A stretch of 63,670 nt of DNA, counting the filler, from Hausera hauseri (lineage: Eukaryota): assembly GCA_046269625.1 (NCBI GenBank). It is 10 parts of 10 records of this genome, joined end to end, with 100 filler letters (N's around TTAATTAATTAA, not from the genome) between each part and the next. Parts side by side here need not be neighbours in the genome. Positions count along the whole stretch, not along the records: positions 35,149 to 40,922 come from JBJURY010155199.1; 9 more parts are not named here. One strand, given 5' to 3'. The translations under genes were made by a program, and so were the position numbers. Shown piece after piece: positions 30,654 through 58,339 of the stretch. The stretch's first letter is position 1, and every line of letters begins with the position of its first letter. The notes below the pieces were generated by a model that did not search any database, was not told the DNA's origin, and was given only the letters and a program-made list of their open reading frames with translations.

Positions 30654-30753
30654 NNNNNNNNNNNNNNNNNNNNNNNNNNNNNNNNNNNNNNNNNNNNTTA
30701 ATTAATTAANNNNNNNNNNNNNNNNNNNNNNNNNNNNNNNNNNNNNNNNNNNN

Positions 30754-33583
30754 CCATTAATGATTTTCTCTGTATCATTAGTTCACATCTTAATTCGTCT
30801 TTCGCTAGTAGTCGGTTTTCAAAATCTTCAGTTTCACTAGTACTCCCTCCTTTCAATCCTTGAATGACATTTATGGTTGTTCCATGTGGGATTTTTTGTA
30901 AAGTCTCATCATCTCCCCATTTCTTGTTCTTATATATGACTGTAATTTTTTCTATTCCCACCTTACATCTTTTAGATATTTTTCTTTTTAGCGAATTGAT
31001 AGTCTCCATTTCATCAATATCGATGACGACTAAGGGGTTTTGGTTCACCTTTACAATTATTTGTTTCGATTTGGATTCTAATAAATTGTTAACACCTTTT
31101 AAATTTGTGTTGGAAGACAATTTAAATTCCATATTATTTTCGTAAACCATTCTCTTTACTTCGCTGGTCATGATCTTCATGGGTTTTTCCTTAGTGTCGT
31201 ACATTATGTTAGACTTACTTAAATAAGAGTCTATTTTAGAGACTTGGCTTTCTATATCATATAATTGAGACCTGTTCAACGAATTTTTAAAGTTTTCGTT
31301 TAGAACATTTTTTTCATCAATACACAAATGACTTATACTATGGTTACTCTTCATCGAATAAAAAGATTCATCCTTAGATGTTTTATAGTAATTATCATCT
31401 CCATTATACTTTGGAGTACTAATATTAGGAATAGCGTACATGTGCATTTGTATACATTTATACAAAGGATATACACGTATACAAAAAATGTCTACAATTC
31501 CAATTCTTTTATTTATATGATCTTTGTTTAACAGGTAATACCCTTCAACAGACAATTGGTTACTTTTACTATTTATAATTATTCCAATTGTCTGTTGTGA
31601 CATTAGTATAGGTCTGGCGCGATATATAGATATAGGAGGAGTTATATGTGCAATATATTTATTAGTTATGTTCAAATGTAGTCCATATAATACAAAGTAT
31701 TTTTTTAATGACAGACTGAATTTATCACTTATGATCATTTGTCTAATCTTATGATTTTTATATTTATAAGTAAAGTTTCTATAATTTTCAGGTTTTAAGT
31801 TCAAAATAGGGAGGGGCAGAGACGGCCGACAACGGTGTATAACAATGTCACAATTTCTAACCTTTAAGACATAGATCCGTTCATCTGGTTTGACTCGAAT
31901 GTTGTCGTTCGGAGAGAACACGATTTCTGTAGTGCATGTTTCTTTAATAACTGCATCTGCGTATAACCATAATCGGTCTTTCATGATGGTATCGGTGACA
32001 ACCAGGTGTATGTATAATTCTCGAGTGCATTCGGTTAATGAGCTCCTGACTGACTGTAATATTATTCGAGATACGTATCGGGAATATTTGAGTTGATTTC
32101 TGTGCCTTTCCATTTGAGCGTTATCTACAGTATTATGTTCCCGATAATCAGTAATCAATTGTGCAGCCTTTTCTGACGGATTCAGATACAATTCCGTAAC
32201 GGACCTTTTGTATTTGTCCGTCCACACTCTAACCGGTAACTCAGTAATCTCAATTGTGTTGTCAGATAACTTTGTATCAATCATTTTAATTTTTTCACTT
32301 CCCTTGTAATCTTTTCTATAATATTTTGAAAAGAAATTATTAATACAGGCGAAAACTACTGCCTTTGGCATGGCTAACGTGTAATTAAAGTTTATCGTTT
32401 CCAATTTTCTTTCACTTCTCATCTTTATACATTGAGAAACGTAAGACGGTATAGTATTATACAGTAGGTTCCTTGAAAACCACATTTGTCTTAGGGCTTC
32501 TTCTCGTTCGATTCCAGTTTCTCGTGAAACGTAAAACCATATTTGTAGAATTTTTTCTCGTTCTCGAATTACAGCATTCAATGACGTAAAGGAAAAAATA
32601 TACCAAAAAGGACAATTCAATAGCTGGACATTATTATTTGTCTCTTTGGAAAATTTTCGTCTATATATATAAAATGGATATAACGATTTTCTTAACTCCA
32701 ATGCAAGACACAAGATAAAGCAACCAATGGAGTTCGACTTTTTAAAATTGCAAAAAACGGAAAAGATTTTAGTCCGTATACTAACTAATACGAATGAGGT
32801 ATTATCGTAATCGAGTAAGTTCAAAAAAAATATTTTGATTGAGTTATAAATTTGTATAAAACATATAACGTTTGGCAATAGTGTGACGATAATGCTTATG
32901 GTAGGTCGATAAAACCGATTCATAACCGAATAATATACCGCACTAAGCTCTGTCTCCTGTTTAATACACGACCTAGGATAATGGCAATAGTAAGGGAATC
33001 TATTTATAAATTTCGTTATTCCATCAAAAGGATCAATAATTTTTGTTGGGTCATCAATCAACTTACATTCAATATCTTCGAGGTCGAATTTTCCACCAAT
33101 AGATGTGTGATTAGGATAAATCACCAAAACTCGTTTCTGAGACAGTTCCTCAATTTCTTGTTCAGTATCTCTGGAAATGGACAAAATGTCATACTTTTCC
33201 TTTAGTAATGATGAGTGTTCTTTATCTAAAACCATATATTTACTTTTAAAATCGGCCAGTTCACGTTTTCTGTTTTCTGATTCACGTTGAATTTCACGAG
33301 TTATTTCTTTTAACTGTGATATAATACCGTCTTTGCAAATTCCCTCAATAACGGATAATGTTGGATCACATTGATTGAACCGAGTTATTCGGTAATCAGA
33401 TAGAACGTCGATCAAGCGAGTTCTTTTGGAATAAAATAAATCATACAGTTTATGACATTTCTTAAGCCAACTACAATGAGGAAAATTCTTATTAATAAAC
33501 TTACCGGACAAATTTGGGTTTGGTAATGATATAATTCTTTCAATTTCCGTTAACCGTTGATCATGACCACCATCATTTATCAT
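30754..33583 (-). CDS. Long chimeric ORF (>940 aa, 3'-open) with adenylyl-cyclase-like, topoisomerase-II-like and ubiquitin-like segments
   Basis: Stop-free for 2.8 kb. Contains LLYNTIPSYV…VVFACINNFFSKYYRKDYKG (cyclase C2 start), NTIEITELPVRVWTDKYK…LITDYREHNT (TOP2), and a UBL ending VIQGLKGG. Confidence 0.6.
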
Positions 33584-33584
33584 T

Positions 33585-35048
33585 TTATCTTCGTATTTTG
33601 AAAATAAGGCTGGAAAATTTGTGAAATAACTCTAATTTTTTGAGAAATGTCGTTGTGAAACGAGCACCATCATTTTCAATCAACGAACTCTCAATTTTCA
33701 GTTGTTCGAATACCATTTCAATACATTCATCTTTGACTTTGGCGATTTTAAAAACCGTTCGAAACTTATGATGTCGCTTAACAAAGAATTCATAAATTTC
33801 CAATGCGTGCCAAACTTTTCGGACGGCAACATCGATCCAGTCAGCTGTATTCCAAATACACAAAAAGAAATAGTCATCCGTTATATGCAAAAAACGCTCC
33901 AAATAATCATGAATTATATCACCATACTTTCTTTCAGCATAAATAGCTGTTATATGAAATTGGTCTTCACATTTCAACCACAACTGGTTTGTTAAAATCG
34001 TTATTGTTACTTCGGCAATATCCCCATATGTAACGTCTTTATGTTTTGATTCATTTCGAGTTACAACTGGACAGTCAATCGGAATGTATTTTGCCGTATC
34101 GTTCATTCGAACATTCAGCATTATTGTTTGACTGTTTTGTCGATTTATCGTTACTTTATCGAGACAATTTGAAAAATGCGGTGGAGGTGACGTATAAACC
34201 AAAGTTGTTAAATATTTAGATACTTTATTTAAGACATACCAACGAACGGCTCTCGTTAATTTTGGAATTTGCCATTTCTTATGGCATTTACTGCTGATTT
34301 CCACACCAAGCATTCGCGTCATAACCAACAGATTTTCGAAATTTTCATTGTTGCATTTCAATTTAATTGACATCAATACAACCGACAGAATATTTTTTGT
34401 TGCTTCAATTTGAAATTCCTCATTTTTGTGAGCTTCCATATGATTATTTAAACTGTTTTTTACGACATACCACGATTTCGAATGGCCGGTTTCGATTTCT
34501 GTTGCTTTAGGTCCAGTAAATTCAACACCAGTTGTCAATTTCTGCTTTTTAGTCGGTTGTCGGCCATATTCTTTGCAAATATTGCAAAAAATCTTGAACC
34601 CGTCGTCGATAGATTCCTTGGAAAATGTTATATTTCGTTCAATAAACGTATTGATGTTATCACATTCATCCGATGCTTTTCTCTTCTTTTTTATTTGACC
34701 GTCATTAATACCAGGTAAGGGACTGCCATTCTTCAGTGCTTCACACATTCGTTTGTATTTGTCAACTTCATTTCGTAAAATAACAATTTCCGTATCTTTG
34801 GTACCAAGGATAACCTTTAATTGCTTTGCATCATCAATATTATAAGCACTGGCACTTAAATTTTCCAAATTCAAACCACCGATAATAACCGGGCAAACAA
34901 CGTATGGATTGACAAAATTCGTACCTGCCGAATTAGTACCGGATCTATCTTTTGATATACAAGGCACGAATATTGACGACATGATTTCTGTACAACCATT
35001 CTTCTTAGTTCTAACATTCGTGTAAATCCACAGAGGCGACCTTTCATT
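33585..35048 (-). CDS. hAT-like transposase-derived ORF (zinc finger plus degenerate catalytic region), open to the contig edge
   Basis: IFCNICK…LNNHMEAH finger, FSNCLDKVT (first catalytic Asp position), CIWNTADWIDVAV (degenerate CxxH box) and GARFTT. The 22 codons upstream of the ATG at 34982 are also stop-free. Confidence 0.5.
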   Translation of the reverse strand, partial: NERSPLWIYTNVRTKKNGCTEIMSSIFVPCISKDRSGTNSAGTNFVNPYVVCPVIIGGLNLENLSASAYNIDDAKQLKVILGTKDTEIVILRNEVDKYKRMCEALKNGSPLPGINDGQIKKKRKASDECDNINTFIERNITFSKESIDDGFKIFCNICKEYGRQPTKKQKLTTGVEFTGPKATEIETGHSKSWYVVKNSLNNHMEAHKNEEFQIEATKNILSVVLMSIKLKCNNENFENLLVMTRMLGVEISSKCHKKWQIPKLTRAVRWYVLNKVSKYLTTLVYTSPPPHFSNCLDKVTINRQNSQTIMLNVRMNDTAKYIPIDCPVVTRNESKHKDVTYGDIAEVTITILTNQLWLKCEDQFHITAIYAERKYGDIIHDYLERFLHITDDYFFLCIWNTADWIDVAVRKVWHALEIYEFFVKRHHKFRTVFKIAKVKDECIEMVFEQLKIESSLIENDGARFTTTFLKKLELFHKFSSLIFKIRR

Positions 35049-36644
35049 NNNNNNNNNNNNNNNNNNNNNNNNNNNNNNNNNNNNNNNNNNNNTTAATTAA
35101 TTAANNNNNNNNNNNNNNNNNNNNNNNNNNNNNNNNNNNNNNNNNNNNGTATACGATGTGCATTAATGTATAGTGCATTTTTCCTTATATAATCACATGT
35201 AGGGTATTTATGTGATATTTATAGACCATGAACTTTTGTTATGGAGGTTAATGGGCAGTTTCACGAATGTTACTGCGTTCTCAATTTTTGTTTTGTACTT
35301 GTGTAATGTCACTAAATAGTTTTTTGCACTTGTTTACTTTTCTCCCATCCATGAGTGGATTCCAATGAGATACTTTTAAACTACTGGTGTATTTGGACTT
35401 CATTTTTTTACGAAGAGCACCAAAATTTTAAATGATCCAACGAAGTCATTTGGATGACATCCTACGAGAAAAATATTCTATAGAAGATGGTTAAACCCCA
35501 TCCCTTTTGGCACGCCATTGCATGTCATATAGAAATCTCTAATGTTTTCAGGTTTCCTCAATTGTCAGATCATAATTTTAATCTATTCGATCTTTAAAAA
35601 GTCGGACTCAGTTCGAAATGTGTATTATTTTCATGACATGATTCGACTTCAAGAGCCATCATTAGAAAACACAGTGAGAGTGAATTGAAATCACAACATG
35701 AAATATGCGAAGTGACTATTATGTAATTTGGAAATGGAGAATTAAAATTTTGAATCAAGCTTAAGTTTCCCATCTGGCCATTCAAACTCGACTTCAAATC
35801 ATGATCTGTAGCTGTTCCGTGCAATTAACGCATACGCACTTAATAATTTCCCTTGCACTCGAATGACAACATACACGAGACGGAATGTCGAGTGAATTAA
35901 CAGCTTATTAAGTGAGATATAAATGAGAGAAAAAATTCGTCAAAAACGTACCAAACATTTAACATATGATGTTTGTATAATGGGAGCATAAACATCGTCT
36001 TTTAAACGAGAGGGTTAATCCGCCAAATACGTCAGTGACAAATGCGCTCCGATAAAAAGATTTAATTAAATGTAACAGCATCGAAAATTTGTCTATGGAA
36101 TATTCGTTAAGGCAACAAACACCTTGTGATAATTATTTCGAATTGATTTTACTGTTTTTAATAAAATACATAAGTTTACTCAACTTTAACACTAGAACGA
36201 CCGAAATAATTTATACCTAAATGGCCAATGGTAGTAGTAGGGAGAAAATGTTCCTTCGGCTCCACATCCTCTCCCCTCTGATGGGGTACCGTAACTGTGG
36301 AATTTCACTATAGGAGCCGTCTCGACGTTCATGTTGCTATGGTGATGGGTCCATGGCAACCGTTACCAGGGATCCGGCTGATGTAGGATCGCTGCTCAGT
36401 GGCGGTTGATATGGTAACTATGTGCATAACAAGCGATAATCGCTAAATTCATTTTCACAATAATTGATTTTGTACAGTAACCCGATCGATTTATCGATCA
36501 AGTGGTTTTCCGGTAATTCCAATATATTGATGATTCGGACCCATGACCGAGTCAAATCGATTGAAAAAAAAAACGTTGTTCTATACAACTGTGCAGCCAG
36601 TTTTTAAATCGAGCAATATCGATTCGAATGTTGGTGTGTTTTAG

Positions 36645-36867
36645 CGTGGTGCCCACATCGACAGCCGCCCTCTCGTTCATTCGTTTGGGCACGGCCGGGC
36701 TTCCGCTGCCGACGCGTCGGGCACATAGGCAGGCCCCGATTTTCCGCCTCGAAAGAAGATAAAGTCAAACCTTGATAATTCGGATTATGAAAGCATCAAA
36801 GTGAATGATTCACAACATGAAACAAATGAAAATACCAATGAATGACAAGTGGTTCGATTATCAATTT
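36645..36867 (+). repeat. LTR-like direct repeat, copy 1, running into the MBOAT leader
   Basis: Closely matches 40314-40536, which begins TG immediately after a polypurine tract. Confidence 0.8.
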
Positions 36868-36985
36868 TCTTCATGCATCCAATCAAATTCGTCATGATTC
36901 ATTACATAAAATTCAGTGGATTTTTAATTCAAATCACTTTGTTGATTTTAAACCAAAATTTGTTTGTTTTTTATTTTCAATTTCT

Positions 36986-38438
36986 ATGTCTCAATTTTAC
37001 GGTGGTTCAGTTTTTCTATCACCATTATCGGACATTTTTGGGCTTCCAATTAATCAGATAAATTTCATTGTTTGTAGTCTATTGTCTATTGCACTTGGAC
37101 AAGTCATTCGACGATATGCATCCCCAAATAAAACCTCATCGAAAATTTGTGGTTTGATTAAAACCGTTTTGGGTTTGTTTATTGTTGTATTCTGTTACGG
37201 TGGTGAAGTGAAATATCTTCTATTTCAATCAGCCGTTTCCTATGTCTTTCTATTGATATTTCCATCAAGATTGGCAGCGTATTTGGTCACGATTTGGTCA
37301 TTGGGTTTTATGGGACTCGTTCATTTGTACCGCATGCATTTCGATTACGGTGGCTACACATTGGACATATCCGGTCCGGTTATGGTTCAAACTCAGAAAT
37401 TAACGAGTCTTGCCTTTAATTTACTTGCGGTTATCGGATAAAACGTGGCAATTCATTGAAAAACAAAAACCACGTAGAACACGCAGTGAAATCGTTACCG
37501 GATATTTTCAGTTTTGCCTCATATCTGTTGTATTTTCACGGGGTATTAGCTGGACCATTTGTATTTTACAACGAATACGTTGATTATTTGAATGGATACG
37601 ACAAACGAGCAATTCCTTGTTCGAAGAAACAACTATCAGCCGCGCTGACGCTGTGTGCCATTCACGGATTGTTGACCGCGTATGTGGCACCTCAATTTAA
37701 TTACATATTCGTGTGCAGTACAAATTATCAACGAATCCACATGTTCCGTGGAATAATGTTTACGATGATCTCATTTTTCTTGGTTCGACAGACATACTAT
37801 TTCGCATGGTTTATTGTCGAATCTGGGACACTCAGTGCCGGTTTGGGTTACAGTGGAAAAGACGAAAATGGTGAGCCGACATTTCCCAAAGTGAAGAATT
37901 ACGATTTTATGGCAATCGAAAGCGGAAGATGTTTAAAAGTCGTTGTTGATGGACGGAACCTTTCCACAACGAGATGGTTACGAGAAGTATTCTACGAACG
38001 ATCACCGTTGTGCTGTCGAACGATTTTGGTTTTTCTAATCAATGCATTCTGGCATGTATTCTATCCAGGGTATTACATGAAGTTTCTTGCTTTTGCGTTG
38101 TTTAAGTTTTGTGCACGAACTGTCCGACGGCAATTGCGTCCGTTATTTATGACGAATGCAATTACTCTCCAGCTTTATCACATTATTACAAAAATCTTTA
38201 CGAATCTAGCATTGAATTATGGATAGAGTCCATTTTATTTGTTGGAATTACAGTCCGGTTTATTTTCTGGAAACCGTACTATTTCGTCGGGCATTTTCTC
38301 GCAATGTTCTTTGTTGTAACACTTTATTTTCGGTCAATTATCAACGACAAAGTCAGTCTGATGAATTTTAAATTTGGTCCAAAAGCGCATTTACAATATC
38401 GACAATTTAGGGATCAGTCACAAAGAACTTTGGGTTAA
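36986..38438 (+). pseudogene. MBOAT-family lysophospholipid acyltransferase (MBOAT1/2-like) pseudogene
   Basis: NFIVCSLL, YTLDISGPVMVQTQKLTSLAFNL, VLAGPF, YYFAW and NAFWHVFYPGYY (catalytic His region). A 1-bp frameshift near 37427 and a stop at 38224-38226; no introns seen. Confidence 0.9.
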
Positions 38439-38726
38439 ATTTTAACTCTCTTCTTTTGCGTTTCGTGTGGCAATGTGTATAGATATTTCAATATCGTTTT
38501 GTTTTATCGATAAAGAAATAAATACATCTTTAGACGGACTTTTCAATTCATTAGCCATCTTAAAATTGGAACTTTTATATTTTCTATCACCGATTAGTTT
38601 CATCGTGTTCAAAATTGGAATTTTCTTTATATTATCGTATTCGAATCTACTTATTTTTGGAATTTCTATCATATATATATCTATTCGGATATTCATCGGC
38701 CAGGTAAATAATAAATTGGTGTCAGA

Positions 38727-39715
38727 AGTGGAATTCGTTGCAAAGGCAAGCATTTAACAGCGTGCATTCAATACACCATCCTGGTGTAAAAGTTACTTTT
38801 CGTTTACTCCATCGACAAGTAATTCGGCCGTCAATGCATTCTGATGTGCAGGCATGGGTTAAGGAGTGTGTGGCTTGCCAAAAATACAAAGCAACTAAGC
38901 ACTTAAGACCACCACTGTTCCATTTTCCCAGCACATCGCGTTTCTAATCCGTGCATATCGACATCGTTGGCCGTCTTCCTCCAGACAATGGTCATCAATT
39001 TATCCTTACCATGATGGATCATTCCTCGAGATAACCAGAAGCCATCCCTCTGCGGAGCACAAATACCGACACTATAGCTGACGTTTCCATTCGCACATAA
39101 ATTAGCAGGTTTGAATTACCTCGCTTCATTATCACGGACCAGGGTCCACAATTTGAATCCAACCTGTTCAAATCCCTTGGCAACTGATTGGGGTCCATCA
39201 CATACATACTACGCCTTATCGCCACCAATCGAATGGCCTTCTAGAACGTTTCCACCGAACATTGAAAACGTCACTAAGAATTCTGGCAGAGTTCAACACT
39301 AGTTGGATGAATTTTCTTCTGTTCGTTCTGCTCGGCTGGCGGAACACTCCGTCCACTTCTACAGGATGCTCATCTACTTAAGCCTTATTCGGAGCTCCTG
39401 TCCGATCATTATTCGAACTAACCGCCCTAGACAACACTCCCACGAATGAGACGATACGGGCGGCGCAAAATTACTTCATCGAGGTCAGCAAAGATTCGTT
39501 CTGCAGTCTACTTCACAAAGACAAAACATACCCCAAGATTTGTATTCGGCAAAATTCGTATGGCTAAATAATCAAGCGCCTTGGGGTTTCCAGCCGCGGT
39601 ACCTGGGGCCCTATAAACTGATACAGCTGCACTCACACAACTCCATTATCTCTAAAGACGGCAAAGACCTTACAGTACACAATACCAACTTAAAGCCCGC
39701 TTTCCTTGAGGACGA
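38727..39715 (+). mobile_element. Decayed Ty3/Gypsy integrase
   Basis: H…HPG…CVAC zinc domain, VHIDIVG, IITDQGPQFES, SNGLLERFHRTLK, and GPY motif YLGPYKLI. Several stops. Confidence 0.92.
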
Positions 39716-40302
39716 CACCTTACCAACCGACACGTCAACCTCTTTTGTCACTCCTCCACTCCTTGCTATCCCTATATCTATTGCTACATCATTTCCACCT
39801 TCCTCTTCCTCGCCTAGTCCTGCTCCATCATTTTCTATACCTGCTACTTCTATTTCTACCACGCCCTCTGTATCATCTTCCTCTTCCACTCTTTCACTCA
39901 ACACAATTCCAATCTCTACTCCAACTTTTTCCTCTCTCCCTTTATCCGTCACTATGCCTTTTATCACGCCTTTGTCTTCTAACACTCTTCAATGCCTTTA
40001 ATCATCCGTCGTCAACAATCCTTCTTCTTTCTTCGTCCTCTTCTTCTCTTTATTCCGACTCATCTTCGCACGACACAACAACTACACCAAAATCTACCAA
40101 TTTTTTCCCCAACCTCAATTTCTGCAAACAAACACATCGCATAAAGACACAACACGCAGAGTCACATTCAGCAAGTATAAGAGGGAAAAATTAGTCGAAG
40201 GTACCCAACGTCTTATTCACACTAAGCTCAACAAACACAAACACTTCGTTTTGCGATTTTTTCTCTCTATCCTTTTACTCTTCATAGTTTTAACTTTTCC
40301 AC

Positions 40303-40313
40303 GGGGGGGATGA
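40303..40313 (+). other. Polypurine tract abutting the 3' LTR start
   Basis: GGGGGGGATGA directly before TGTTGTG at 40314, about 600 bp downstream of integrase. Confidence 0.75.
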
Positions 40314-40922
40314 TGTTGTGCCCACATCAAGCGCCACCCCCTGGCCCATTCGGTTGGACACGGTCGGGCTTCCGCTGCCGACGCGTGGGGCACATAGGCA
40401 GGCCCCGATTTTCCGCCTCGAAAGAAGATAAAGGCAAAACTTGATAATTCGGATTATGAAAGCATCAAAGTGAATGATTCACAATATGAAACAAATGAAA
40501 ATACCAATGAATGACAGGTGGTTCGATTATCAATTTGTATTGTTGTATGCTGTTATGGTGGTTAAGTGAAAAATCTTCTGTTTCAATCAGCTGTTTTCTG
40601 TCTTTTTACTGATATTTCCATCAAGGTTGGCAGCGTATTTGTTCATGATTTGGTCATTGGATTTTATAGGACCCGTTCATTTGTACAGCATGCATTTCGA
40701 TTACGATGGCTACACGCTGGACATATCCGGTCTGGTTATGCTTCAGACTCAGAAATTAACGAGTCTTGCTTTTAATTTACTTGACGGTTATCGGATAAAA
40801 CGTGGCGATTCATTGAAAAACAAAAACCACGTAGCACACGCAGTAAAATCGTTACCGGATATTTTCAGTTTTGCCTCATATCTGTTGTATTTTCACGGGG
40901 TATTAGCTGGACCATTTGTATT
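40314..40922 (+). repeat. LTR-like direct repeat, copy 2, continuing into a second, internally deleted MBOAT copy
   Basis: 40314-40536 matches 36645-36867. The sequence then jumps to the equivalent of ~37177 and follows MBOAT to the contig end. Confidence 0.85.
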
Positions 40923-44735: not shown

Positions 44736-45725
44736 TAAAAATCAACCAATTATTTGAGGAGCACAAATAAAAACTCGCCATTCGTGGAATTAATTTTGGA
44801 AATAATGAAATATATCGCCATATCAACACACACTGCCTCGTTTATTGATTTTTAAATTTTGAATTTTTGATTATTTTCTAACATTCTAGACCACTTTGTT
44901 TTAAATGCATGTTGGCACAAAATTTAAGGTCTTCGACCAAGGTGAATCGAATGACGTCATTAGACTCTTCGAACATTGCACGCTTGACCAAGTTTTCGAG
45001 TTCGAATATCGATTTTATCGATTTCGAATAATGTATTCGAATATCTAACAGAGGATTATAAATCGCCATATATGGCTTCCTATGTGTGCGCTATCAGATT
45101 TATCGATTTCCGCATCATTGGTCTTTAAATGCAGATTTTGCTTAATTCGATTTATTAATTTTATACCTATATAGTACATTTTCATGGAATATCTTTAATG
45201 CACCTAGGGGTTTTCGGACATGGGAAATCGAATACCGTCGCCAGATTTTTCGAAAAGTTCGATATTCGATATTTGAAGGGGAAAATATTCGAATTTCGTA
45301 CATTCGACTCGATATTCGAGATCTCCATACTCGACTTCCTATCTGTCTCCGCTCAATGTGATATAGAAGTTTGAGTTCTTAGGGCAAATAAAACCTATGG
45401 GAAATCTGCCTCACTTGCACTTTGAATCGATATTATTCGAAATCCACTCGACCGATTTAAATTCTAATTNNNNNNNNNNNNNNNNNNNNNNNNNNNNNNN
45501 NNNNNNNNNNNNNTTAATTAATTAANNNNNNNNNNNNNNNNNNNNNNNNNNNNNNNNNNNNNNNNNNNNAGTCGAGATCTGATAAACTACGCAAGGCACC
45601 GCACGCAAGTGCAAACATTCTAACGAGAACGTTAGGACTTATCTGCTTAATATCATTTAAAAATTCGAGTTTCCGTATTGTTATAGTTGGGTGTTGGATA
45701 GGGCCCACCTTCAACTACTAACATT

Positions 45726-45743
45726 TGGGGACCCTAACAGGAC
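45726..45743 (+). other. Candidate primer-binding site after the LTR end (…AACA-TT-TGGGGACCCTAACAGGAC)
   Basis: CA followed 2 nt later by TGG, about 290 bp upstream of gag. Partial resemblance to a tRNA-Trp-type PBS (TGGTGACCCCGACGTGAT). Confidence 0.5.
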
Positions 45744-46011
45744 AGTTTGTACTTGCTAGACTTGACTTTTAGTGAAAAATAACGACATATTAGCGATCAG
45801 CGCTACCACATCAATTAATTGATTGCAGATTGTTGTGAAATTAAAATTTGGGATTATAAAGAAACCCTCAGTATTATAACGACATATTATTGAATTAAGA
45901 TCGAATATTGATAGACATAAGTCAGATGATAACTTAAATCTCATTCTAAACGGTAAAGAGAATATTAATTTTTGTGAAACACGTAATAAAGTTTATAGAC
46001 AAGGTAAGACG

Positions 46012-47264
46012 TTGAGTAGACGCACTTTATCTGAAACAAATTTAAGTGATACTGAACCTATTGACTTAAACGCTGTTGAGCAGCCTATTGAATCCAAGGT
46101 TCCTGATAAAAGAATTAGAACTCGTAAGGTAGTTAAGCAAAATCTTATAAACGTCGAAAATATGGTTGAGAATCAAGCAATAGCGCAAAAGTTGGACATA
46201 TTTACATTCGATTCGATGAATCTTCCGGCGTACGACGGAGACCCGGACGGACTTAATGAGGTCTGAAGGACATATAAGTTGCATGCAGAAGGTTCCGGAC
46301 TTGCATCTAACGTAATGATTAAGCGCCGGTCCTTATATTTAAAGAATTTGGCCGCTGATGCTTATAGCGAACTCACCGATGATGAAAAGGAAACTTGGTC
46401 CTCCCTGGTAGGAGCCTTGAATCGAAAATTGTTACATACTGTAACTCCGCAACAAAAGCTCATGGCTTTTCAGAATAGAGTACAACAAAGGGTGAATCGA
46501 TAACCCAATTCGCTTTTACCTTAAAGAAATTGGCAAACAGTTACGTAATCACCTTAAGGATAGCAAACATAGCCAAGGCTAAAAACGAAGCAAAACGTGA
46601 AGCCTCAGAAAAGGCAAATCCTCTAGATTTGGACGTCATGATGATGACGCAGTTAATAAACGGTATTTGGTCTAAAGACATAGTAAAGCAACTGATTCTA
46701 GCACGTCCGGAAAATTTTGATAGGACATTGCAATTGGCCCAGGACTTAGAAATGGCATTGGATAGATATGCCAGAAAGAATGACAGAAATGATAGAAATA
46801 ATGATCAAGTTGAACGAAGCGATAGAAATCGGAACAATAGAAATGGTAGACGATATAACAGGAATTATGGGGATCGGAACGAGAACCGTAATTATGATCG
46901 CAGAAACGATCGATACAGTAACCAGAATTTTGATAATAGCCGAAACAGTTTTCCTAGTAAACGAAATTATCATACAGATAAACGCATAGATGGCTCTAAA
47001 ATTTTTAATCGTCAGAACGACAGCCGAAATTACGATAATTGCCAATATGGAGACCCTAGACAGGCCCCTTCGCAACAAGACTACAAAAGAAATCCGAGCA
47101 GATCGAAATCTCCAGTGAACGAAGATGGCCCACAAAGGATCGGGAGAATTGGCAACTTAATCTGTTACATGTGCGGACAAGAAGGACATATAACGAGATC
47201 CTGTCCAAACCCGCGAAGTGTCTCGTTTGTGGAACCTAGTAAAACTAATGTAATTAAAAATTAA
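46012..47264 (+). pseudogene. gag (capsid, R/N/D-rich linker, CCHC knuckle)
   Basis: LPAYDGDP, YLKNLAADAY, QLINGI and CYMCGQEGHITRSC; internal stops. Confidence 0.85.
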
Positions 47265-50200
47265 AACTTAGAAGCAATTTACGGTGTCCGTACAGACACG
47301 GGTATGATCATTGAGATACAAGACTTACGACGCTTTTTAAAGGCCCAACCTGATACTAAAGACCCTAAAGTTTTAGTGGCTAGGAATGAATACGAGCATA
47401 AGGTACGATTATTAGAAGTTTATCACGGTCTACGCGAACCAGAAACGGAATGTGAACGTTCCATTGTCCCACCAAGGCTGAGTGATATAGCACGGAAAAA
47501 GAACGTTCCTACGATAAACAGAGTCGATCGAAACAGGAAAACCTGAGACTCCGGGTAAGGTAGATTTAGATGTAGAACCCGAGTATACTATAAAAAAGGT
47601 ATCCAAGGAGGCCGAGGCCGACGAAAAAAAGAATTTCTGGAACCACATACTTAAAATTACCAAGAATAGAGGCCGTAACCCATCGTTGAGACGAAAACGC
47701 AAGAATGGTTCGAGATCCCCAAAGATTAAAGAAAAGTCGAGCACCAAAAGAGAAACCGAAATCGCTTTGGAAATCGACGAAGTGTGCCTCGAACGTTCCG
47801 GAGATTGACCTAGTTACGCCGAGCGAAATGGATGAGCCGACGAAATCTATAAATGAGATAAACGACATATGTCCTTTACCTGCTAGTGAAGAGGAAACGG
47901 AACAAGAAGAGAAACTGGGTCCTAAAAAGTGGAAGATTAGGCGTTCGTGGAAAAATGCCGACGAATTAAAAAGAATGAGGATAAACTGCTTCAATCCAGA
48001 GGTAGTGCAACAAAATTTAGAGAAACTAAAGGCGATGAGTGAGCAAGTGGATATCTCGGGCAAAGAACAGCTGTTTGTAGAGAGATTATATGAAAAGATG
48101 AAACTATATAGTGAAGGAAAATTAAGCGAAGCTATAGATTTAGATCAGCTGGAAGAAGTGACAAAAGAAACACTAGTCAAATGGGAACACGAACTAGAAA
48201 AATGGATGAAAAGAGAGATGAAGCTTCCGGAGACGTGGAATAAAACTACCCAAGACATTGAAGATAAAGTTAACCAAGCTCAATCTTTATTAACTACATT
48301 GGAAGTCAATCCGAAATTAAAAAGAGCAGCACGTAATCTAGAGCGTGTCATGAATGAAATTAGATTTGTAACAGTCGAATGACTCAATGGAAAACCGGTC
48401 AAAGAACGAGATGCAAATGACCTAGAGATGATGGGCATAGATGCCATAGATATTCCACCCTTGATGGAAATGGTAAATGTCGCTTAAACGGCATCAAGGC
48501 AATATACAAGTCTTGAAAATCGTATTAGGATTGAAGCCGAAAAACGGTCGCAGATATATGGGCTAAGGAACAGAATTGTGCATCTAAATAACGACGAAAC
48601 ACGAAAAATAATTATGGCTTGCATCCTCGAGTTCGATGAATACAAAGACGAGTTTGACTATGCCTACCGAATCATCGATTATATTAAAGGTCCAGATGAC
48701 GAGCTAGAAGACGCTCGAAAATTGTTGAACAAAGCAATACTGGCAAAGCCAGAAATCGCTAACTAGTTGAAAGAATGGTCCGAAGTAATAACGAGGCTGA
48801 GTAAATTAGTAGCCGATCGAAAAAGGAATTTCCGGAGAGCGAACCTGCAGTAAAGAAGCGATTAGAAGACGCCCGAAATCTAGATACGATGAATGCAGAA
48901 ATTGACATCCGAACCCAATTCGAGGCATTACGCCAATTGAACTTCATGGAAAAGAAACAAGAGATGATACTAGACGATATATATATATAAGATGATCGAA
49001 GAAACAAACTTCATGCGAAAGCGAAATGTGACTTATGATTTCTACCCACGATTACGAGATGTCCGTCGGAATGGAATACGGTGGTTGACAGCCAAACCTA
49101 TCGAAGAAATCTCGATTCGAGATCTTAAAACCTTGGACTTTTGTCCCGAATATTGGTCGATCGTTGAAGAAACGGTGAAGTTCTTACACTAGCCGCAGGA
49201 ATGGATGGACGGAACGGATCAGAGACATCATATGGAACTGATTAAAATAAAGAATGACCACCACCTTAGCTTTGAGTAGATCAATTTTGTAAAAAAATTT
49301 ATTAGATGCGATAGATCCGAATTTAAAGTGTATTAACGAGATGTACGAATTAGCGCTATTTATGGCAGAAATGGCAGAAATTAGTGACGAGAAACTAAGA
49401 CAATTGCTGCAGCAGATGCAACAAGTCGAGGAAACTTGCATTAAGGCGAAACAGAAAGCGATGGGATTAGACGATCTAGCTAGAGAACTCGAAGTCTATA
49501 AATAAAAATACGTCTTTACATAAGCCGAAAAAGCTCACAAGTCACAATTCGTTTAAAGATGGCAGAGATGTCATGTCTGAACTAACGAAATATGAAGAAA
49601 ATGGGTTAATTTCCCCCGAAGAACTATGTTCGTTATTAACAATGCTCCACCAAACACCCTCTAATGGGCGATGTTTCCGAACGACGAAAATGGTCCAAAT
49701 GCAACAGAAACTACAAGAACTCAGAAAAATTACATGGACCGCAAGTGTGGATAGACCAACGGATGTACCGTCAAGGGACCATCAACTCCCGGATAACGAT
49801 AATGAAACAGAATGGGAGGCATATTTAGACGCAATGATTGCCGAGAATCCCAAAACCCTAATACTATTGGATGAAATGGAAGTATATTTTCCGGACCAAA
49901 GGTTCAACGTAGGAATGCTTCTGGACCCGGTACACACCGAAAAAGATTTAATTCAATTAATTGAACTGAACCTCACTGAAAATCAATTGAGACATCTAGT
50001 CCTACCTTAACTACGTTAGCTAGCGAAGGTACGACTTCCAGTACGGTACCTAAGCTTTTACTCAAGGAATATGCTAAAATCTTAAAGGCAAGGGCAGAGG
50101 AAATGATCCCAGTAAAGATAACATCAGACTGGATGGACGAGAAGGAATAAGAGTTTACTACGCGCTCCCTTATGAAGGATGTATTACTGTGGATAAAGAA

Positions 50201-51044
50201 CAATGGATAGGGCCCATGAGCTAAGCTATAGACTCTATTTTAGAGGAAGGATACTAGACGAGTCGGAATTATTGATAGAAGTTAGAATTATTCCAGGTGA
50301 GGTAAACCGGTTAGTGGTACCTATTGCCATCGATGAAACAAAGGAGGAGGCCATAAGAAAAGCTAAAGCAGAACAACAGGTAGGACAAATAATAGGAGTC
50401 CGAGATCCAACAGTATATTTCGAGTACCTGCAGAAAAATGAAGATAATGAACAATACGATAAGAATTTAGTACCCATAAATAGCAATGTACCTATTATAA
50501 CAAAACAGAAGCGTTCTGTCGGTAGGCCGCGGAAAACACGAGAGGAAATCGATTACAATGGAGATTTAATCAGAGTTGAGACAAATGTCCATACCGACCT
50601 TTAGTGCGGATAATGAGGAACTGAACGAACTTATGAAAGACTTGATACGAATAGTAAACCACTCTAGCCTCGGCGGTGATGTATTAGATGAGAAAGAGAA
50701 AGCCATAGCGAACGCCGCAAAGGCTATGAAAGGCCTTCGGTGTAAATTAACCAGAAGTATTCTAAGCGATGAAATGATAATCGAGAAAATTATGGTAGAA
50801 AACACCATAGAGGAATTGAGAAAAGTGTTGCTATATCTGGCCATCAGAACCAAACCGAACAGAGAAAGTGAATTTAACAAGGCTCCTTGCTTGGCAAGGA
50901 AGGCTGCCAGGAAACTGCCCCGAGAAGTGGATTGGACGAAGCTATTCGAAAAAGAAGAGCATCAAAATATATTCTTCTTCGATAACAATAGATTCGGAGA
51001 TTTGCTACGAAACGTGACTGGAAATCGCAGCGGAAATGAATCGA

Positions 51045-52900
51045 ACTGGCTAATCAATTTTTTGACCATGATGATGTTAATAAGGCAAATGGGCGCAGTC
51101 ACAGTATATGATTGTGACAAATTCAGACTTGGCCAAAAATATTCGTTAATGGACTTCGAAATGTGCGAAGATGCGAGGCCTTACAGATTAGAAACAAAAG
51201 AGAAAAGTTATATATTATATCAACAACGCGAATTACTTACATTGAACGGAATAGAATATATGTTGCGGCGATCTCGCAGCATTTTCCATTGTGGGCTGGT
51301 ACATGAATACTCATCAATAATTAAGCCAACAACCCCACTAATTCCGATGAATTTAGAGCGACAGCATTGTAAGCAAGCTAGAGAAACGGGGAGAATAAAA
51401 TGGGACGGTATGGAAATGGAAATGCAGCAAGTGAAAATAATCAGTGTATGAAGTGGCAGTAGGAAGACTGGATATGCACACCGGACACTGTCACGGTGCG
51501 GAATACGATACCGGAAAGGAATTAGGGTCAAACATCGTGGTAGTGGATTTTTACGAAACCGAAATGCGTATACAGAAAGTGATGTTTTATAGCGTTACTA
51601 AACTTTACACCGAGAACCACAAGTGCCACATTCAGGATGGCACATGCCTGTTTTGATGTTCCGTAGTAATTTGGGAACCCCCAGCCAAGACCTATTGCAA
51701 CTTTATCAGAATTAAAGAACTTAAGTTCAATGAGACGACAGGAAAACGGTATATAAGTAGCACAGAAACTAATTCTAAAACACGAGATGTAGCCGAACAG
51801 TCCACACCCACGATACTGATTTCTGATACTCATGGATTAAAATTTGTAAAAAAGGCTATGCTCACCAGATGCGACGTCGCAATGTACGCCACCAACTATG
51901 AAGCATTTTTCGTAGCCGAGACAGAAATAAACGCCAGAACGTTCAAACTCGAGACTCAGGGCATCCGGAGTGAAGACTATTTGAAGAACAGAGACGACTA
52001 TTTCTATTATAAAGGACAAGCCGGAATAGCCGAGTTATACCACAAAATGATAACAAATGACTGTAAATTGGACTATGAAATCATGAGAATTAAGCTGGCC
52101 CTGATATACGCCAATCCCGAGTTGGCATCACCAGTAATTCCGATGAAGGAGGGTGTTTTTGGACGAGTAACCGGAGAAGTCTTATTTTACCTATGAATGA
52201 GAAGAAAGACGTACCGATTAATGTGGAAGAGAAGAGGTGTATACAAGAACTTCCAGTGATATATTAGGACGTACTGAGATTAGTAACACCGATTACCAGA
52301 GTGTTGTTGGCAAACGCCACTCAACCGACAATTCTGAGAGACTGTAAAACCAGCTTAGGAGAGCAGATGTTCAGACGTAGCGAGACCGACTGGGTAAGTC
52401 TACCGAACGGCGGTATTATCGCATTACCTAGCAAGCTTACAGGAACAAACCTGATAAAAGGAATAACCGGTGATAAATTTCAAGATACAGCCGCAAAAGG
52501 TATTTACCGACCAAAAGACGTAGAGGCGTTTAGACAATTTTTCGCTTTTCCCCGCCGACGTACACATGAATTAAACAGCAATGCATACAATATTGGAGGA
52601 TTCGCGCTACCAGGCGAAATGGGAATCGTTACTTGGTGTTTGTTATAATAAAAAAGTAACTACAGAGGTAATGTATAAAGTCTGGGGAAGATTCCTGATG
52701 TTCGGACAAGCCGCGTCAGGATTTCTAGCGATATATTTCTTAATTTAACTGATAAAAGCTATAATTCAAGCAATCATAAATGGATACGAGATATTCACCT
52801 TGACCGCATTTTCGTGCAAAATTTTAACGGCTATCATTACACCCTTTAGCAAATTCCTAAAGGCTTATGAAGAGAGTAAATAGAAAACAGGTGTGGAGCG
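51045..52900 (+). pseudogene. Chuvirus-like / gB-like class III viral fusion glycoprotein (env), decayed
   Basis: Signal-like WLINFLTMMMLIRQMGA, then VYDC…YSLMDFEMC, RSIFHCG…C..ARETG, CHIQDGTC, DYLKNRDDYFY, GVFGRVTGEV, CIQELPVIY, VTPITRVLL, and C-terminal WGRFLMFGQAASGFLAIYFLI-LIKAIIQAIINGY. The motif order is the one I recall for chuviral/retroelement glycoproteins. Confidence 0.72.
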
Positions 52901-53498
52901 ACATGTTGACTACCATAATTGAAAACGTAAAAGACGCATATTTGATTACGGGCAAAAATTCATAGATAGTAAGACACGAAGAAACAATTCTGATGATGAC
53001 GAGCCTAAAGGAGGAGACGTCATCTCCGGGCCGAGCAGGCACAAAAATTACTCTGTTATGAAACTACCATTACCAATATTGCCGCCAACGTCACCCATAT
53101 ATGAAGATTGCGAGAACCAATCTATGAGCTCGTGTCAGACAGACGTCTATCGGAAGCCATTTAACCTAGAGGATCCTTACGAAGGAACAAAACGCTATGG
53201 GATATTGCGTAAGATCCACGGAACAGAGAGAACCTCGGCTCCATACTATCGATCAGCAGTCGACGACCACGGTATAATTTACTCACCTAGAATACCTAAG
53301 CCAAACGAAAGACAGTCAATATTTACCGGAAGCCGTGAAACACACCATCTCAGAAGCCAAGAAATTCAGCCGCCAGCTAGAAATCAAGGAATAAAAAACA
53401 CGAATGGCATGACTAATGAACTATACCCAATCGGAGAATTATGACATCTAATTGACCAGCCAGTCGGAACCACTGAAGTTACCATAAACGGCTACAAG

Positions 53499-56400
53499 GT
53501 GTCCACAATACGACATCCTAAAACAGCACCAAATTATTACGGTACGGTAATCAAAGGCAGGCCCTTCGCAAAGATTCAATTGGAAGATTGGGAAGTTTAT
53601 GCACTAATAGATACAGGATCTGAAAGATCACTGATAAAATATGATTCGATACCACAATTCCTACGGAAACGATTATATCCACCTCCCACGACAGACCCAG
53701 GAAGCATTGGAGCTTTCGGACAGTCGTCGAAAAGTAAATTCCGTTGGAAACCAGAAATTCACATAATGGGACAATCTTTTCACTATGAATTTTCAGTTAT
53801 GGAGCAATTGACGGATGATGTAGTGTTAGGGTGTGACTTATTGAGACAACTACCTAATATAGCAATCAATTTCAATGCCGGCAAGTTGATAAAACTTGAC
53901 CCAATAAAGGAGTTAAAACCACTAAAGACCGAAAATTTGGAGAAGTGTAGATTCCAGTGGACGAAACTATACCGCATAGAACGGAAGTACTCATATATGC
54001 CCAAATACGTCAGGATGACGATCAGCCAGTATGTTTTGAGCCGAAAGAATCGCTTAATCCAAATATTGTGCTCAGTGACGTTTTGACAAGAGTATCAACG
54101 GGCCGCGTGCCAATCCGAATAGCGAATAACGCACCCACTCCCATCAAACTGTACGCCAATACCACTTTGGGACACACGTATAGAGTCTCAGCGATTTCCA
54201 TCGAAGAAAAACCGTATAAGGGTGCCGAATTTCCACCCCATGTTGAGACTAAATTTTCACCGGAATCATATTGTCGATTTTATGAATTACTTTGCCGCTA
54301 CAGCTCAATTATCGCGAGAAACGAAGAAGATATTGGCCGCGCCAGAGCCCTAAGACTCACGATTCCGCTTAAGAAAAATCCTGGTTCCAACAAGGAAATA
54401 GATCTTAAGAATCAAAAGATGCCGAAATGGTATCCTCCTTTAAACTCATTAAGGCCAGAGATAACCAAAGAGGTTGAACGAATGTTAAAGGCCGACATAA
54501 TTAGAACAAGCTACAGATCTTGGTATTCACCAATACTCATGGTTAAGAAAATATGTACCACTGAGCACCGATTTTGCATCGACTATCGAGCGTTAAACAC
54601 GCTTATGCTGAAGGTCTTCTTCCCGTTACCATCGGTAAAGAAAGCTTTGGACAGACTCTCTGGAGCCAAATGGTTCACCACGCTCAATTTACAATCTGGA
54701 TACTGGCAAGTCGAGATAGAGGAGGAAGATCGTTACAAAACGGCATTTAAGACACACAATGGTATATACAAATTTAATGTTATGCCATTTGGGATAACTA
54801 CCGGACACACCATTTTACTCTTATGATGAATAAAATGCTAATGGGAATGGAACACACGTTTGCCTACTTAGACGACGTCATGATCGCGTCGAAAACGGAA
54901 GAGGACCATCTAAAAGATATCGAGGGTACACTTATGAGACTAGAGCAGGCTAGACTGAAACTGAATCCCAAAAAGTGCAAATGGGCTCAGAATGCTGTGT
55001 CGTACCTCGGACATATAGTAGGAGAAGGAGGATCGAAGCCGGATAAATCATTATTGAGTAAGATATCGGATTGCATGGAACCTCAGAATCAGAAGGAATT
55101 AAGACACTGGTTAGGGTTGTGTGGGTATTATGCTACTTATGTACCAGACAATGCGAAGATAAACGCACCTTTGTATCGTTTATTGAAAAAGGGGATCAAA
55201 TGGAAATGGACCGATGTCGAACAAAAGGCTTTCGACGAAATGAAAAAGGTTCTAACTAGTGAACTCGTTTTAAGATATCCCGACTTCAACTTACCGTTCA
55301 TAATCAAAACAGACGCCAGTAAGGAATGTATCGGATATGAACTGGCCCAAAAACGAGAAGACGAAGAGTTGGAGCACCCTATTGCATACGGAGGACGTTC
55401 CGTGAAGAAAGCGGAGAAGAACTATTCTGTTACGGAGTTAGAAACATTAGCCGTAAAAGAAGCACTGCGACATTTTAACGTGTATGTCTTCGGACAGAAG
55501 ATTATAATCGTTACTGACCATAAGGCAGTCACGACCTTCAAAGGTAGGGCAATTAATCCACCCTGTAGACTTAACCGGTGGATTGAGGAGATTTCACGTT
55601 ACAATATTGAATTCCAATACAAACCCGGAAATAAACATGTCGATGCCGACGCATTATCAAGACTTAAAACGAATACAAGCGCAGTTACATTAATGAGGAG
55701 AGCCCACCTCGGAGATTTAGTAGAAAGACAACGGACTCTTACACTGGATAAGGCATTAAATATTGCTGTTGAACAGGGAAAAGACAAGGTTATACAACAT
55801 ATTATCGAGTTCATTGATACCAACGTAACACCAAAGGATCATCAGTTACGGAAACACCTACGACAATATGGTCACAAATATTGCGTCGCTGGAGATTTGA
55901 AGCATGAAATTATACTACGAACGAAAAGGACGAAAATTGGTAGTCATACCAAAAGGATTGCGTTCAGAAGTACTAATGGCCAAACATGATTCGTATTTAG
56001 TCGGACACGTCGTGGAAAAAGACCCTAGAAAGAATCTTGAATAAATATTATTGGCCGAGCATTTACATTGATGTGAGAAACTGGGTGAATGCTTGCGAAG
56101 TATGCGCGACCAAACAAAGAAAAGTGAAAAACTACATCGCCGAGCTCGAGCCTGTCTACGTGCCCGATAGACCAATGCAAGCGATGTCTATTGATATTAT
56201 AGGATCATTGCCTACGACCCACAAGAATAAAAAATACATTTTGACCTGTGTAGACCGATTGAATCATTTCGTCGAGCTTACAGCGTTATTAGACCAAACG
56301 GCCGAGACCTTGGCAGAAGCGGTAGTCCGGAAAATCATTTGCAGATACGGGCCACCCGAACAAATCTAGACAGACCGAGGAAGAAACTTCACGAGAGAAT

Positions 56401-57017
56401 TATTCGACAAGATTACCAAAATTTTTGAGATTGAACGATTAACTATCACAGCTTATCATCCCCAATGTAATGGAATGGTCGAACGAATGAACGCGACAGT
56501 TAAACAAATCTTATCGACACTAGTCGCAAAAGACCAGAAGGATTCGGATGATTTCTTGGAAGGCACACAATTTGCTGGCAGAGAAGCGGTGCTTCCTACA
56601 GATTTAGGACTGATCCCATACACAACAAGAACAGAATATTTAAAACAAAATTTCGTCGAGGTATTGCAACTGAGATTACACAAGTGTTGGGCAATAGCCA
56701 AAGAATTATCTAAAGAATACCAGGAACAATTCAAGAAGCAGTATGATAAGAAGGCTAAACCACACGATCTAGAACCCGGAAATTGGGTCTACATACACTA
56801 CCCAGTAGCAAAGAAAGGCACGTCTCTTAAACTTACCAGGATAGGTAGAGGACCTTACGAAGTTACTAAGGTTACACGAACCACAGTTTATATAAATAAA
56901 AATGGCGAGGAAGAGGTCATATCAATTCAGAGAGTAGTCAAAACGGAAATAAGACCAAAAAACGCTATAATTTGCGTTAAAGCAAAACAAATAAAGAAAA
57001 GAAAACGTCGTCGATAG
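53499..57017 (+). pseudogene. pol: protease, reverse transcriptase, RNase H, integrase
   Basis: ALIDTGS…VVLGCD; RFCIDYRALN, LQSGYWQV, MPFG, AYLDDVMI; KTDAS, YSVTELETLAV, VTDHKA, ADALSR; YYWP…CEVC, IDIIG, NGMVERMN, RGPYEV. Confidence 0.95.
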
Positions 57018-58339
57018 TGACTAGACCAATATCGTATGTACAAATAGTCCTGACCTTATCGTTAATCGCTTCGTATATACCCAAAGTGAAATCGATCACT
57101 CAGACCGGAAAAGTAAAATATGCAGCAAAACGGAAAGATATCCAAAACTTACAATCACTTTGAGTAAATGATATGGATTGGAGAAAACCATGTTCATGGT
57201 TTGAAGCAAACGAACATATTCAAAGCCACGTAAAATTTCAAATAATATTTGTAATTGGGAACACGATGAGAATGTGCGATTTTCCGTACGGCGTTCATAG
57301 GAGATGTTGTCATTTGGATTTTGGACAAGCCTACGGATACAGCTTCCAAATGTTTTATTTTTATCAATTTGAGACTCAAGCCTACATAACTACGGGACTC
57401 TCAATAAGAATGCCCCAACGAAAGGACGCAAATCAAGCTAAGATGGACGAAATAATTCGAATCACGGATCCATTGAAGAGGCGCTTAGATTACAACATTG
57501 TTGGGATTCACAAGGACTTGAAAAACCAGTGTATTCGAATTGAGACCAAAATCGAACTGCCAGGAGACAGAGAAATTTCTGTCCAATTTATACCACTGAA
57601 CACTTCAATTCCTGAATCGGAGTATTGTTATTTGGTCAAACGACGACCTACTGTGTGTTGTGTGCTGCTATTAGGACAAGAGTATCAATTGCAACTCGAT
57701 TTGTACAATACGTACTCTGGAGAACCAAGTATCTATTTAAGAGAATATCGCCCAAAGAACGGAATATGGAATCTTCCGGTCCCAGCCACTACGGGAAAAC
57801 CATCCACGCCTCCGAGCACAACTCTCACTGCTACGATTGTCACTTCGGACGAAATGCTAGGAAGCATGCCGGTTAAGATTTTGGCAAAAAGTAATAGAAT
57901 CCTATTTTACGCTGAGGAAACGATAAATCAAGACGTAAAAATTGAATGTCGCACCCTGCACACCAACTAAGTTGTGGTCCTGAGAAAGAATAGTCAAGAA
58001 ACTGAATGTAGGTCATTACAACCACAACATAATTATATAGTCCGAATTACTGCAAAGGGTAAAAATCCTAAAACTTTCACAGTCCAAACTTTTGACAACA
58101 AAATTGAAGTAAGGCGGTATAAAGATCTTAGTACGCAAAATGTGTTCACCACGGAAAGTTTTATTGAGAGAGACAATTTATGGATAATAGTTATATTTAG
58201 TTTGTCAATTTTTGTTCTTGTCATAATAACCGCGATGATTTTTCTAGTTTCCAAAAATTGTAATAAGCGCTGCAAAAATCGAAAGGGAGATAAACGGGTA
58301 AAAAGACACCGAGACGGACCTTATAATAGCATAACCTAA
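57017..58339 (+). pseudogene. Type I membrane protein with an FN3-like module, immediately after integrase
   Basis: Signal-like YVQIVLTLSLIASYI at ~57035-57080, a Cys-containing ectodomain, a P/T-rich stalk, SLQPQHNYIVRITAKG (FN3 LxPxxxYxVxVxA pattern), TM LWIIVIFSLSIFVLVIITAMIFLV and a basic tail. ORFs 57173-57970 and 57974-58339 are in one frame, split by a single TAA. Confidence 0.6.

Follow-up and report, generated by a model that had tools for sequence, protein, structure and literature searches.

How does a host gene come to lie twice in a single retrotransposon, each time in the place of a long terminal repeat (LTR)? The question is raised by one contig (JBJURY010155199.1, positions 35149-40922) in a stretch of 63,670 nucleotides from Hausera hauseri (GenBank assembly GCA_046269625.1). 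This stretch, hereafter the window, contains a relic of a Gypsy element with a lipid acyltransferase gene of the MBOAT family. An earlier note, made from the sequence alone, proposed that MBOAT had become part of the LTR and was duplicated by reverse transcription. We find that MBOAT does occupy the LTR position, between an LTR head and the primer-binding site (PBS), and that it is present twice. The element is a dead, low-copy, non-autonomous Gypsy derivative with a chimeric LTR. We give about an even chance to an origin by reverse transcription in which different templates, each bearing MBOAT, recombined.

Structure of the element

The two repeat copies begin at 36645 and 40314, and 40314 is the first base after a polypurine run. 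Upstream of copy 1, no similarity to the region of the polypurine tract (PPT) was found. The order proposed earlier (repeat start and MBOAT, integrase, PPT, repeat start and MBOAT) is real and its domains were matched; so is the observation that copy 2 starts directly after the tract at 40303-40313 while the sequence before copy 1 is unrelated.

The window joins short contigs by nine spacers (44 N, 12 bases and 44 N; window 4783-59694), and features across a spacer are not neighbors. The contig of interest ends at 40922, inside copy 2. Evidence from read contigs comes from one public sequencing run (run X1), which is possibly the window's own source sample and so is not independent. The features of the element are as follows.

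36640..36644 (+), left flank, the would-be left half of a target-site duplication (TSD), from the sequence; the right half would lie past the contig end
36645..36754 (+), ordinary Gypsy-family LTR head, copy 1 (110 bp; starts CG), from the repeat start and high depth in run X1
36755..36985 (+), host-derived MBOAT leader (5′ untranslated region (UTR) or upstream DNA), low copy, from an alignment with the 5′ UTR of metagenome locus L001 and a depth of 12.8
36986..38438 (+), whole intronless MBOAT1/2-type acyltransferase frame, copy 1, broken, from PF03062 and tblastn with the intact relative P0001
38439..38705 (+), MBOAT 3′ tail with AATAAA at 38517, from the sequence
38706..38714 (+), 9-base match to the ordinary LTR continuation, a possible switch-back point or LTR remnant, from letters at a loose end in run X1
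38717..38734 (+), tRNA-Leu(CAA) PBS, from a probe match
38735..40226 (+), 3′ part of Gypsy pol, a broken integrase with a Ser/Pro-rich tail, from Pfam and homology to polyprotein P0176
40303..40313 (+), PPT, abutting the second LTR head, from a run of 7 G that occurs nowhere else in the window
40314..40423 (+), LTR head, copy 2 (starts TG), from pairwise alignment with copy 1
40424..40535 (+), host-derived leader, copy 2, ending at a 311-bp deletion; its LTR/host junction is identical to that of copy 1
40536..40922 (+), MBOAT copy 2 (codons ~65-193), which contains a stop and bears the bulk of the amino-acid damage, up to the contig end

The 2.07 kb from 36645 to 38716 occupy the position of a 5′ LTR. 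The PBS stands directly 3′ of the MBOAT tail, as the second LTR head stands directly 3′ of the PPT. Positions 38717-38737 match the start of an antisense tRNA-Leu(CAA) probe at 20 of 21 bases (PMC7997516; statements on this and the other cited papers refer to the parts of their text that were available), and this is the sole such motif in the window. Thus, the earlier proposal that MBOAT is part of the LTR holds. Because the same LTR/host junction is found in both copies, we attribute it to one capture event. Gag, protease, reverse transcriptase and RNase H are missing, so that the element is non-autonomous and gene-carrying, as had been supposed. Neither MBOAT copy now encodes an enzyme.

Ordinary LTRs of the family lack the gene

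Contigs of run X1 were placed on the window at 80% likeness, and the results below draw on 40 of 659 differences, 15 of 29 joints and 6 of 758 loose ends. The LTR/host junction is placed after 36754 by 63 contigs that depart from the window sequence behind this base. Other contigs join the pre-PPT region to the LTR start via PPT-like letters. This confirms 36645 as the start of the family LTR, and with it the earlier statement that the duplication edge coincides with the LTR start. Of the ~220-bp leader named in the earlier note, only the first 110 bp are ordinary LTR.

Depth in the run is ~5 in the unique flank, 5764 in the bin with the end of the LTR head and 12.8 in the next bin (36886-37078). 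Over nine MBOAT bins it is 13-47, against about 10^4-10^5 over the integrase; depth is not taken as copy number here, and only this roughly thousand-fold contrast is used. Based on this one run, the ordinary LTRs of the family are without MBOAT, and MBOAT is low-copy. LTRs without MBOAT had been named in advance, together with a missing TSD, as grounds for rejecting capture. Their lack of MBOAT shows capture to be rare and does not refute it.

The rest of the ordinary LTR is absent from the element, with the LTR head to the left of the cargo and the PBS and integrase to its right. Positions 38706-38714 match the ordinary LTR continuation over 9 bases (AT-rich), a length reached by 0 of 1743 background 15-mers, with agreement over the continuation of only 0.45. 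LTR ends are normally TG...CA. Copy 2 starts TG, copy 1 starts CG, and no CA was found in the 12 bases preceding the PBS. This departure from the rule could be decay.

Two observations were made around the junctions. A purine-rich open frame of 29 codons ending in TGA follows the LTR/host junction in both copies (36756-36845 and 40425-40514) and is either the tail of a neighboring gene or chance. An exact 262-bp contig of run X1 (36384-36645) stops at the junction with the LTR head, either as a fork to an empty-site allele or at a coverage hole.

The MBOAT cargo

Copy 1 matches PF03062 (E 2e-15) and is collinear with all 483 residues of the intact protein P0001, with no space for introns (tblastn). 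The alignment falls into three collinear pieces of 66, 72 and 59% identity. Its frame is broken by a frameshift at 37427/8, a stop at 38224-38226 and a frameshift near 38260. P0001 is the closest match overall (72% identity). Of 20 matches, 17 carry names, as flatworm lysophospholipid acyltransferases 1/2 (38-48% identity). A quick tree places the window frame as sister to P0001 in a well-supported clade in which the members with names come from parasitic flatworms, and a flatworm is thus the most likely host.

When P0001 was compared with metagenome contigs, eight loci were found, of which L001 is the only close one. L001 holds the reading frame of the relative plus short flanks only, too little for gene structure. 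Its 5′ UTR aligns with the leader at 36879-36952 with a score reached by 0 of 3000 shuffles; the alignment is AT-rich and gappy, and we regard it as moderate evidence. The 3′ tail has no detectable likeness to the 3′ UTR of L001 (1992 of 2000 shuffles scored as high). No poly(A) was found at the MBOAT 3′ end, where the longest A run in 38436-38716 is 4.

Further searches covered other data. No RNA run containing the stretch was among the matches listed, and the LTR motif had 0 matches in metagenome contigs of the Joint Genome Institute (JGI). The integrase piece gave 117 pattern matches to viral contigs, 0 of which were confirmed.

At 38091 and at 38130, at least four low-depth MBOAT contigs of run X1, all without flanks, have letters other than those of the window. 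Hence the run contains a few other MBOAT variants, presumably including the parent gene. One contig (depth 3.6) joins 38634 to 38709, swapping 74 bases for 38 others, and is possibly a second variant of the MBOAT/PBS junction. At no fewer than five places in copy 1 (36928, 37427, 37572, 38091 and 38130), every placed contig disagrees with the window, and the frameshift at 37427 is absent from the two contigs placed there. These places may reflect missing data or assembly error. Missing data are conceivable because single-copy depth is only 3-5.

A deletion that begins at the end of the PBS

The integrase matches the Pfam families Integrase_H2C2 and rve and shows a zinc finger, a core and a Ser/Pro-rich tail. 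Five stops were counted in 266 codons of it. Its closest relative is P0176 (69% identity), a polyprotein with the Gypsy order of reverse transcriptase, RNase H and integrase; the other pol pieces in the window share 28-41% identity with P0176. Assignment to Ty3/Gypsy agrees with a Gypsy-type integrase, a tRNA PBS after the 5′ LTR and a PPT before the 3′ LTR, where the window holds the integrase only and the domain order is taken from P0176.

Homology to P0176 starts at 38735. With a PBS length of 18 bases, this is the first base after the PBS, and it is where the internal deletion begins. The element has lost gag and more than 2 kb of pol (P0176 residues 1-715), and a loose end in run X1 at 38748 reads as the missing upstream pol. 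Deletions that start at the end of a PBS are tied to reverse transcription; no published description of such deletions was found in our literature search. As a random break rarely lands at the end of a PBS, we count the deletion junction for reverse transcription. A misplaced plus-strand jump during that process would leave a break at just this place.

The two copies form a mosaic

An alignment of the two copies has 45 mismatches in 608 columns (7.4%), and bases 36867-37177 of copy 1 are missing from copy 2 (the 311-bp deletion). The mismatches are patchy. They number 13 of 51 and then 1 of 59 in the LTR head, 4 of 112 in the leader, 24 of 248 in the first coding tract and 3 of 138 in the last. 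None of 1000 permutations did as well as a fit with four segments (13/51, 5/171, 24/248 and 3/138). Fifteen amino-acid differences were scored by comparison with 18 intact homologues; copy 2 has the derived state at 14 of them and copy 1 at none, the remaining one being ambiguous (p 1e-4). The count omits another codon, which lies at the deletion junction. An exact 283-bp contig of run X1 (40487-40769) matches both the deletion junction and the damaged tract of copy 2. The copy pair is a mosaic, and two LTRs diverging evenly since insertion are not what is seen.

Invariant sites are changed at 13 of 103 positions in copy 1, 8 of 40 in copy 2 and 10 of 70 in the integrase, and at 1-10 of ~110 in intact MBOAT controls. 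Several other patterns were considered and set aside. Purifying selection between the copies gave a raw ratio of nonsynonymous to synonymous differences per site (pN/pS) of 0.42, but with transitions taken into account, the 10 synonymous changes among 23 differences do not reach significance (p 0.07-0.09). A fresher middle of copy 1 was not supported (3 of 40 invariant sites changed in the shared region versus 10 of 62 in the rest, p 0.24). CpG decay behind the divergent LTR head was ruled out, since the next 59 bp are richer in CpG and have one mismatch, and so was hypermutation of a single type in copy 2, where changes are of every kind.

How the element may have formed

We propose the following sequence of events. 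In an RNA that autonomous relatives packaged, the LTR head would have been joined to MBOAT, either through template switching or because transcription read through a truncated 3′ LTR. Plus-strand synthesis starting at the PPT would then have yielded a single piece with the head, MBOAT and PBS. Had that piece jumped wrongly into the integrase gene of another packaged template, this one step could account for the presence of MBOAT at both ends, for the loss of gag to RNase H and for the unequal ends. The left end would derive from a less damaged MBOAT template and the right end from a deleted, more damaged one, and gene conversion may later have evened out some tracts.

Several results are counted for this proposal. 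The one-sided damage (14:0) and patchy divergence fit ends from different templates, and the low-depth variants in run X1 speak for multiple MBOAT-bearing templates. The PBS after the MBOAT tail, the LTR head after the PPT, the 9-base LTR match and the absence of poly(A) also favor it. A comparable step has been described for HIV-1 proviruses in which the 5′ LTR is intact and the 3′ LTR deleted; they are ascribed to a plus-strand transfer between two genomes packaged together (PMC9278108).

Other points weigh against the proposal. The right end, the TSD and any dispersed insertion site lie beyond view, past the contig end at 40922. With no CA before the PBS, normal end-processing by the integrase is doubtful. 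The deletion between PBS and integrase may predate the capture, and a deletion older than the capture does not show reverse transcription of MBOAT itself. Additional conversion has to be assumed for the two near-identical tracts (5/171 and 3/138). Damage is also present in copy 1 (13/103), and it is not significantly lower in the shared region than elsewhere in that copy, so that the idea of a fresher template is carried by the 14:0 count. Finally, the read contigs come from a single run that may be the window's own source sample. On balance, whether reverse transcription placed MBOAT at both ends is about evenly poised. Of the earlier claim that the duplication arose by reverse transcription, one junction, at the end of the PBS, fits; a single copying event followed by even decay is contradicted by the mosaic.

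The best of the alternatives operates on DNA, and we consider it possible although unlikely. MBOAT would have been in one LTR only, and unequal recombination in the shared LTR head, between an ordinary 3′ LTR and an MBOAT-bearing 5′ LTR on a sister chromatid or at another locus, would have produced a head-to-tail array. The earlier note held that duplication at the DNA level should not break exactly at the LTR edge. That argument is not supported, because unequal recombination in the LTR head breaks at this very edge, with no need for MBOAT to be reverse-transcribed into both ends, and yields a chimeric LTR (PMC1950507). Complex elements are described as usually arising through such shared, chimeric LTRs (PMC1950507; PMC7215508). 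The head of copy 2, with its divergent first 51 and nearly identical next 59 positions, is as a crossover in 36696-36754 would leave it and is not explained by CpG density, and the low MBOAT depth in run X1 is also in agreement. Recombination between sister chromatids predicts equal damage, contrary to the 14:0 count, unless the donor was an older locus or mutations clustered beside the deletion.

A further view, which we hold to be distinctly less likely, is that a small non-autonomous Gypsy lineage replicated with a whole host gene in its LTR, as a protein-coding counterpart of the Cassandra elements. Its cargo would have been refreshed by recombination with MBOAT mRNA or kept working from the LTR promoter. 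Such refreshing or upkeep would explain why 0 of the 14 polarizable amino-acid changes fall on copy 1.

Two readings appear very improbable, to about the same degree. By the first, a single reverse-transcription event made two identical MBOAT-bearing LTRs that then decayed independently. The overall divergence, the junction common to both copies, the boundary at the LTR start and the similar order of invariant-site damage in the integrase and both copies would suit it, but the four-segment fit and the placing of all 14 polarizable differences on copy 2 contradict it. If later conversion is added, this reading becomes the template-recombination proposal. By the second, the structure is an assembly chimera, in which two loci were joined via the near-identical LTR stretch 40365-40423 or copy 1 blends several MBOAT copies. 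Short contigs, the presence in run X1 of only 65% of sampled words, and the places in copy 1 contradicted by all placed contigs agree with this, and none among the contigs listed spans the element. However, copy-specific letters lie at most 40 bases to either side of the copy-2 LTR/host junction, the exact 283-bp contig covers the deletion and damaged tract of copy 2, and holes are expected at single-copy depth. Moreover, a mis-join cannot create the LTR/MBOAT or MBOAT/PBS junctions.

Least probable, by a little, is an MBOAT processed pseudogene made by a long interspersed nuclear element (LINE), inserted in an existing LTR and duplicated later, which would account for a whole intronless frame with both flanks but is opposed by the lack of poly(A) and by an LTR that is not simply interrupted, at most 9-11 LTR-like bases following the insert before the PBS.

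Other features of the window

On other contigs, a long decayed Gypsy-like element (45570-59594) contains a zinc knuckle (46479-47264) and reverse transcriptase and RNase H (53951-55989). Between the zinc knuckle and the reverse transcriptase lies a piece of a Monjiviricetes-type fusion glycoprotein (50570-51451, E 9e-9). An env-like gene between gag and pol recalls the planarian Burro elements (PMC6431247).

A broken piece of a DNA polymerase B of the protein-primed type lies on the next contig (41900-43800, - strand; PF03175, E 6e-5) and is probably a Polinton/Maverick relic. The window also holds a 775-codon uninterrupted frame for a heparan sulfate N-deacetylase/N-sulfotransferase (13008-15335, - strand) and a 68-bp satellite with more than 110 copies that fills a whole contig (22789-30650). 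An open frame of 977 codons (30698-33631, - strand) resembles three unrelated Pfam families weakly and in patches, namely inositol monophosphatase, topoisomerase IV subunit A and ubiquitin, all below cut-off, and a 503-codon frame without matches (33585-35096) lies directly upstream of it.

Comparison with known systems

Complex elements (Sabot and Schulman 2007, PMC1950507) resemble the element in having a chimeric middle LTR, formed by DNA recombination or template switching. TSDs and the identity of the outer LTRs separate these two routes (PMC1950507). The complex elements described there carry no host gene, and here the deciding right end is missing. The HIV-1 proviruses with asymmetric LTRs (PMC9278108) share the combination of an intact 5′ LTR with a deleted 3′ LTR, but they belong to a retrovirus, the transfer was onto the PBS and not into the integrase, and no host gene was captured. 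Burro, a giant planarian element (PMC6431247), is likewise a flatworm Gypsy with host-like domains. Its extra domains lie in a huge internal polyprotein and it is abundant, whereas the element described here is small, belongs to another family and carries its cargo in the LTR.

Closer in layout are the Cassandra elements (PMC7215508; bioRxiv 10.1101/2023.07.14.548913), terminal-repeat retrotransposons in miniature (TRIMs), which also hold host sequence inside the LTRs, are non-autonomous and form tandem arrays that share LTRs. Cassandra carries a functional, conserved promoter piece of ~70 bp from 5S ribosomal DNA (rDNA), occurs in plants and is abundant; the cargo here is a low-copy, protein-coding pseudogene of 1.45 kb, and integrase remains. 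An Rfam scan of the contig matched no RNA family, and so no Cassandra-type 5S rDNA, apart from one sub-threshold match to the histone stem-loop. The interior is not non-coding, as it contains the integrase, and copies are not abundant (MBOAT depth 13-47 versus about 10^4-10^5).

LTR-mediated retroposition (Tan et al. 2016, PMC5131818) is alike in that host sequence is flanked on both sides by one LTR element, which is replaced and not interrupted, in that poly(A) is lacking, and in that the product can act as a non-autonomous element. In the fly, part of the internal open reading frames (ORFs) had given way to the cargo in 15 of 15 cases, and most cargoes were incomplete, with a median of 26% of the transcript (PMC5131818). 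The element described here differs from the cases in the main text of that paper, whose supplements could hold LTR-internal junctions, in that a complete frame precedes the PBS and the same join is seen again behind the PPT. Its cargo does not replace the internal ORFs; gag to RNase H were lost at a different junction. No case of LTRs that both contain a complete protein-coding host gene was found in the literature covered, which left out most subscription papers, and none is described in the available text of PMC6431247, PMC13317346, PMC3726574 and PMC9674220.

The weight of the present case is limited, since it is one dead, truncated, low-copy locus whose spread to other sites is unshown. 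Virus-encoded genes occur in the U3 regions of retroviruses. Because the two ends are a mosaic here, the divergence of an LTR pair cannot date such elements. A whole gene in an LTR would be copied twice in each transposition, would persist as a 'solo LTR' following LTR-LTR recombination and would have the LTR promoter directly in front of it, which would make this an efficient route for spreading complete retrogenes. Gene capture by LTR elements is known in animals, with a cargo that is normally partial and replaces internal genes; what is unusual here is a whole gene in the LTR.

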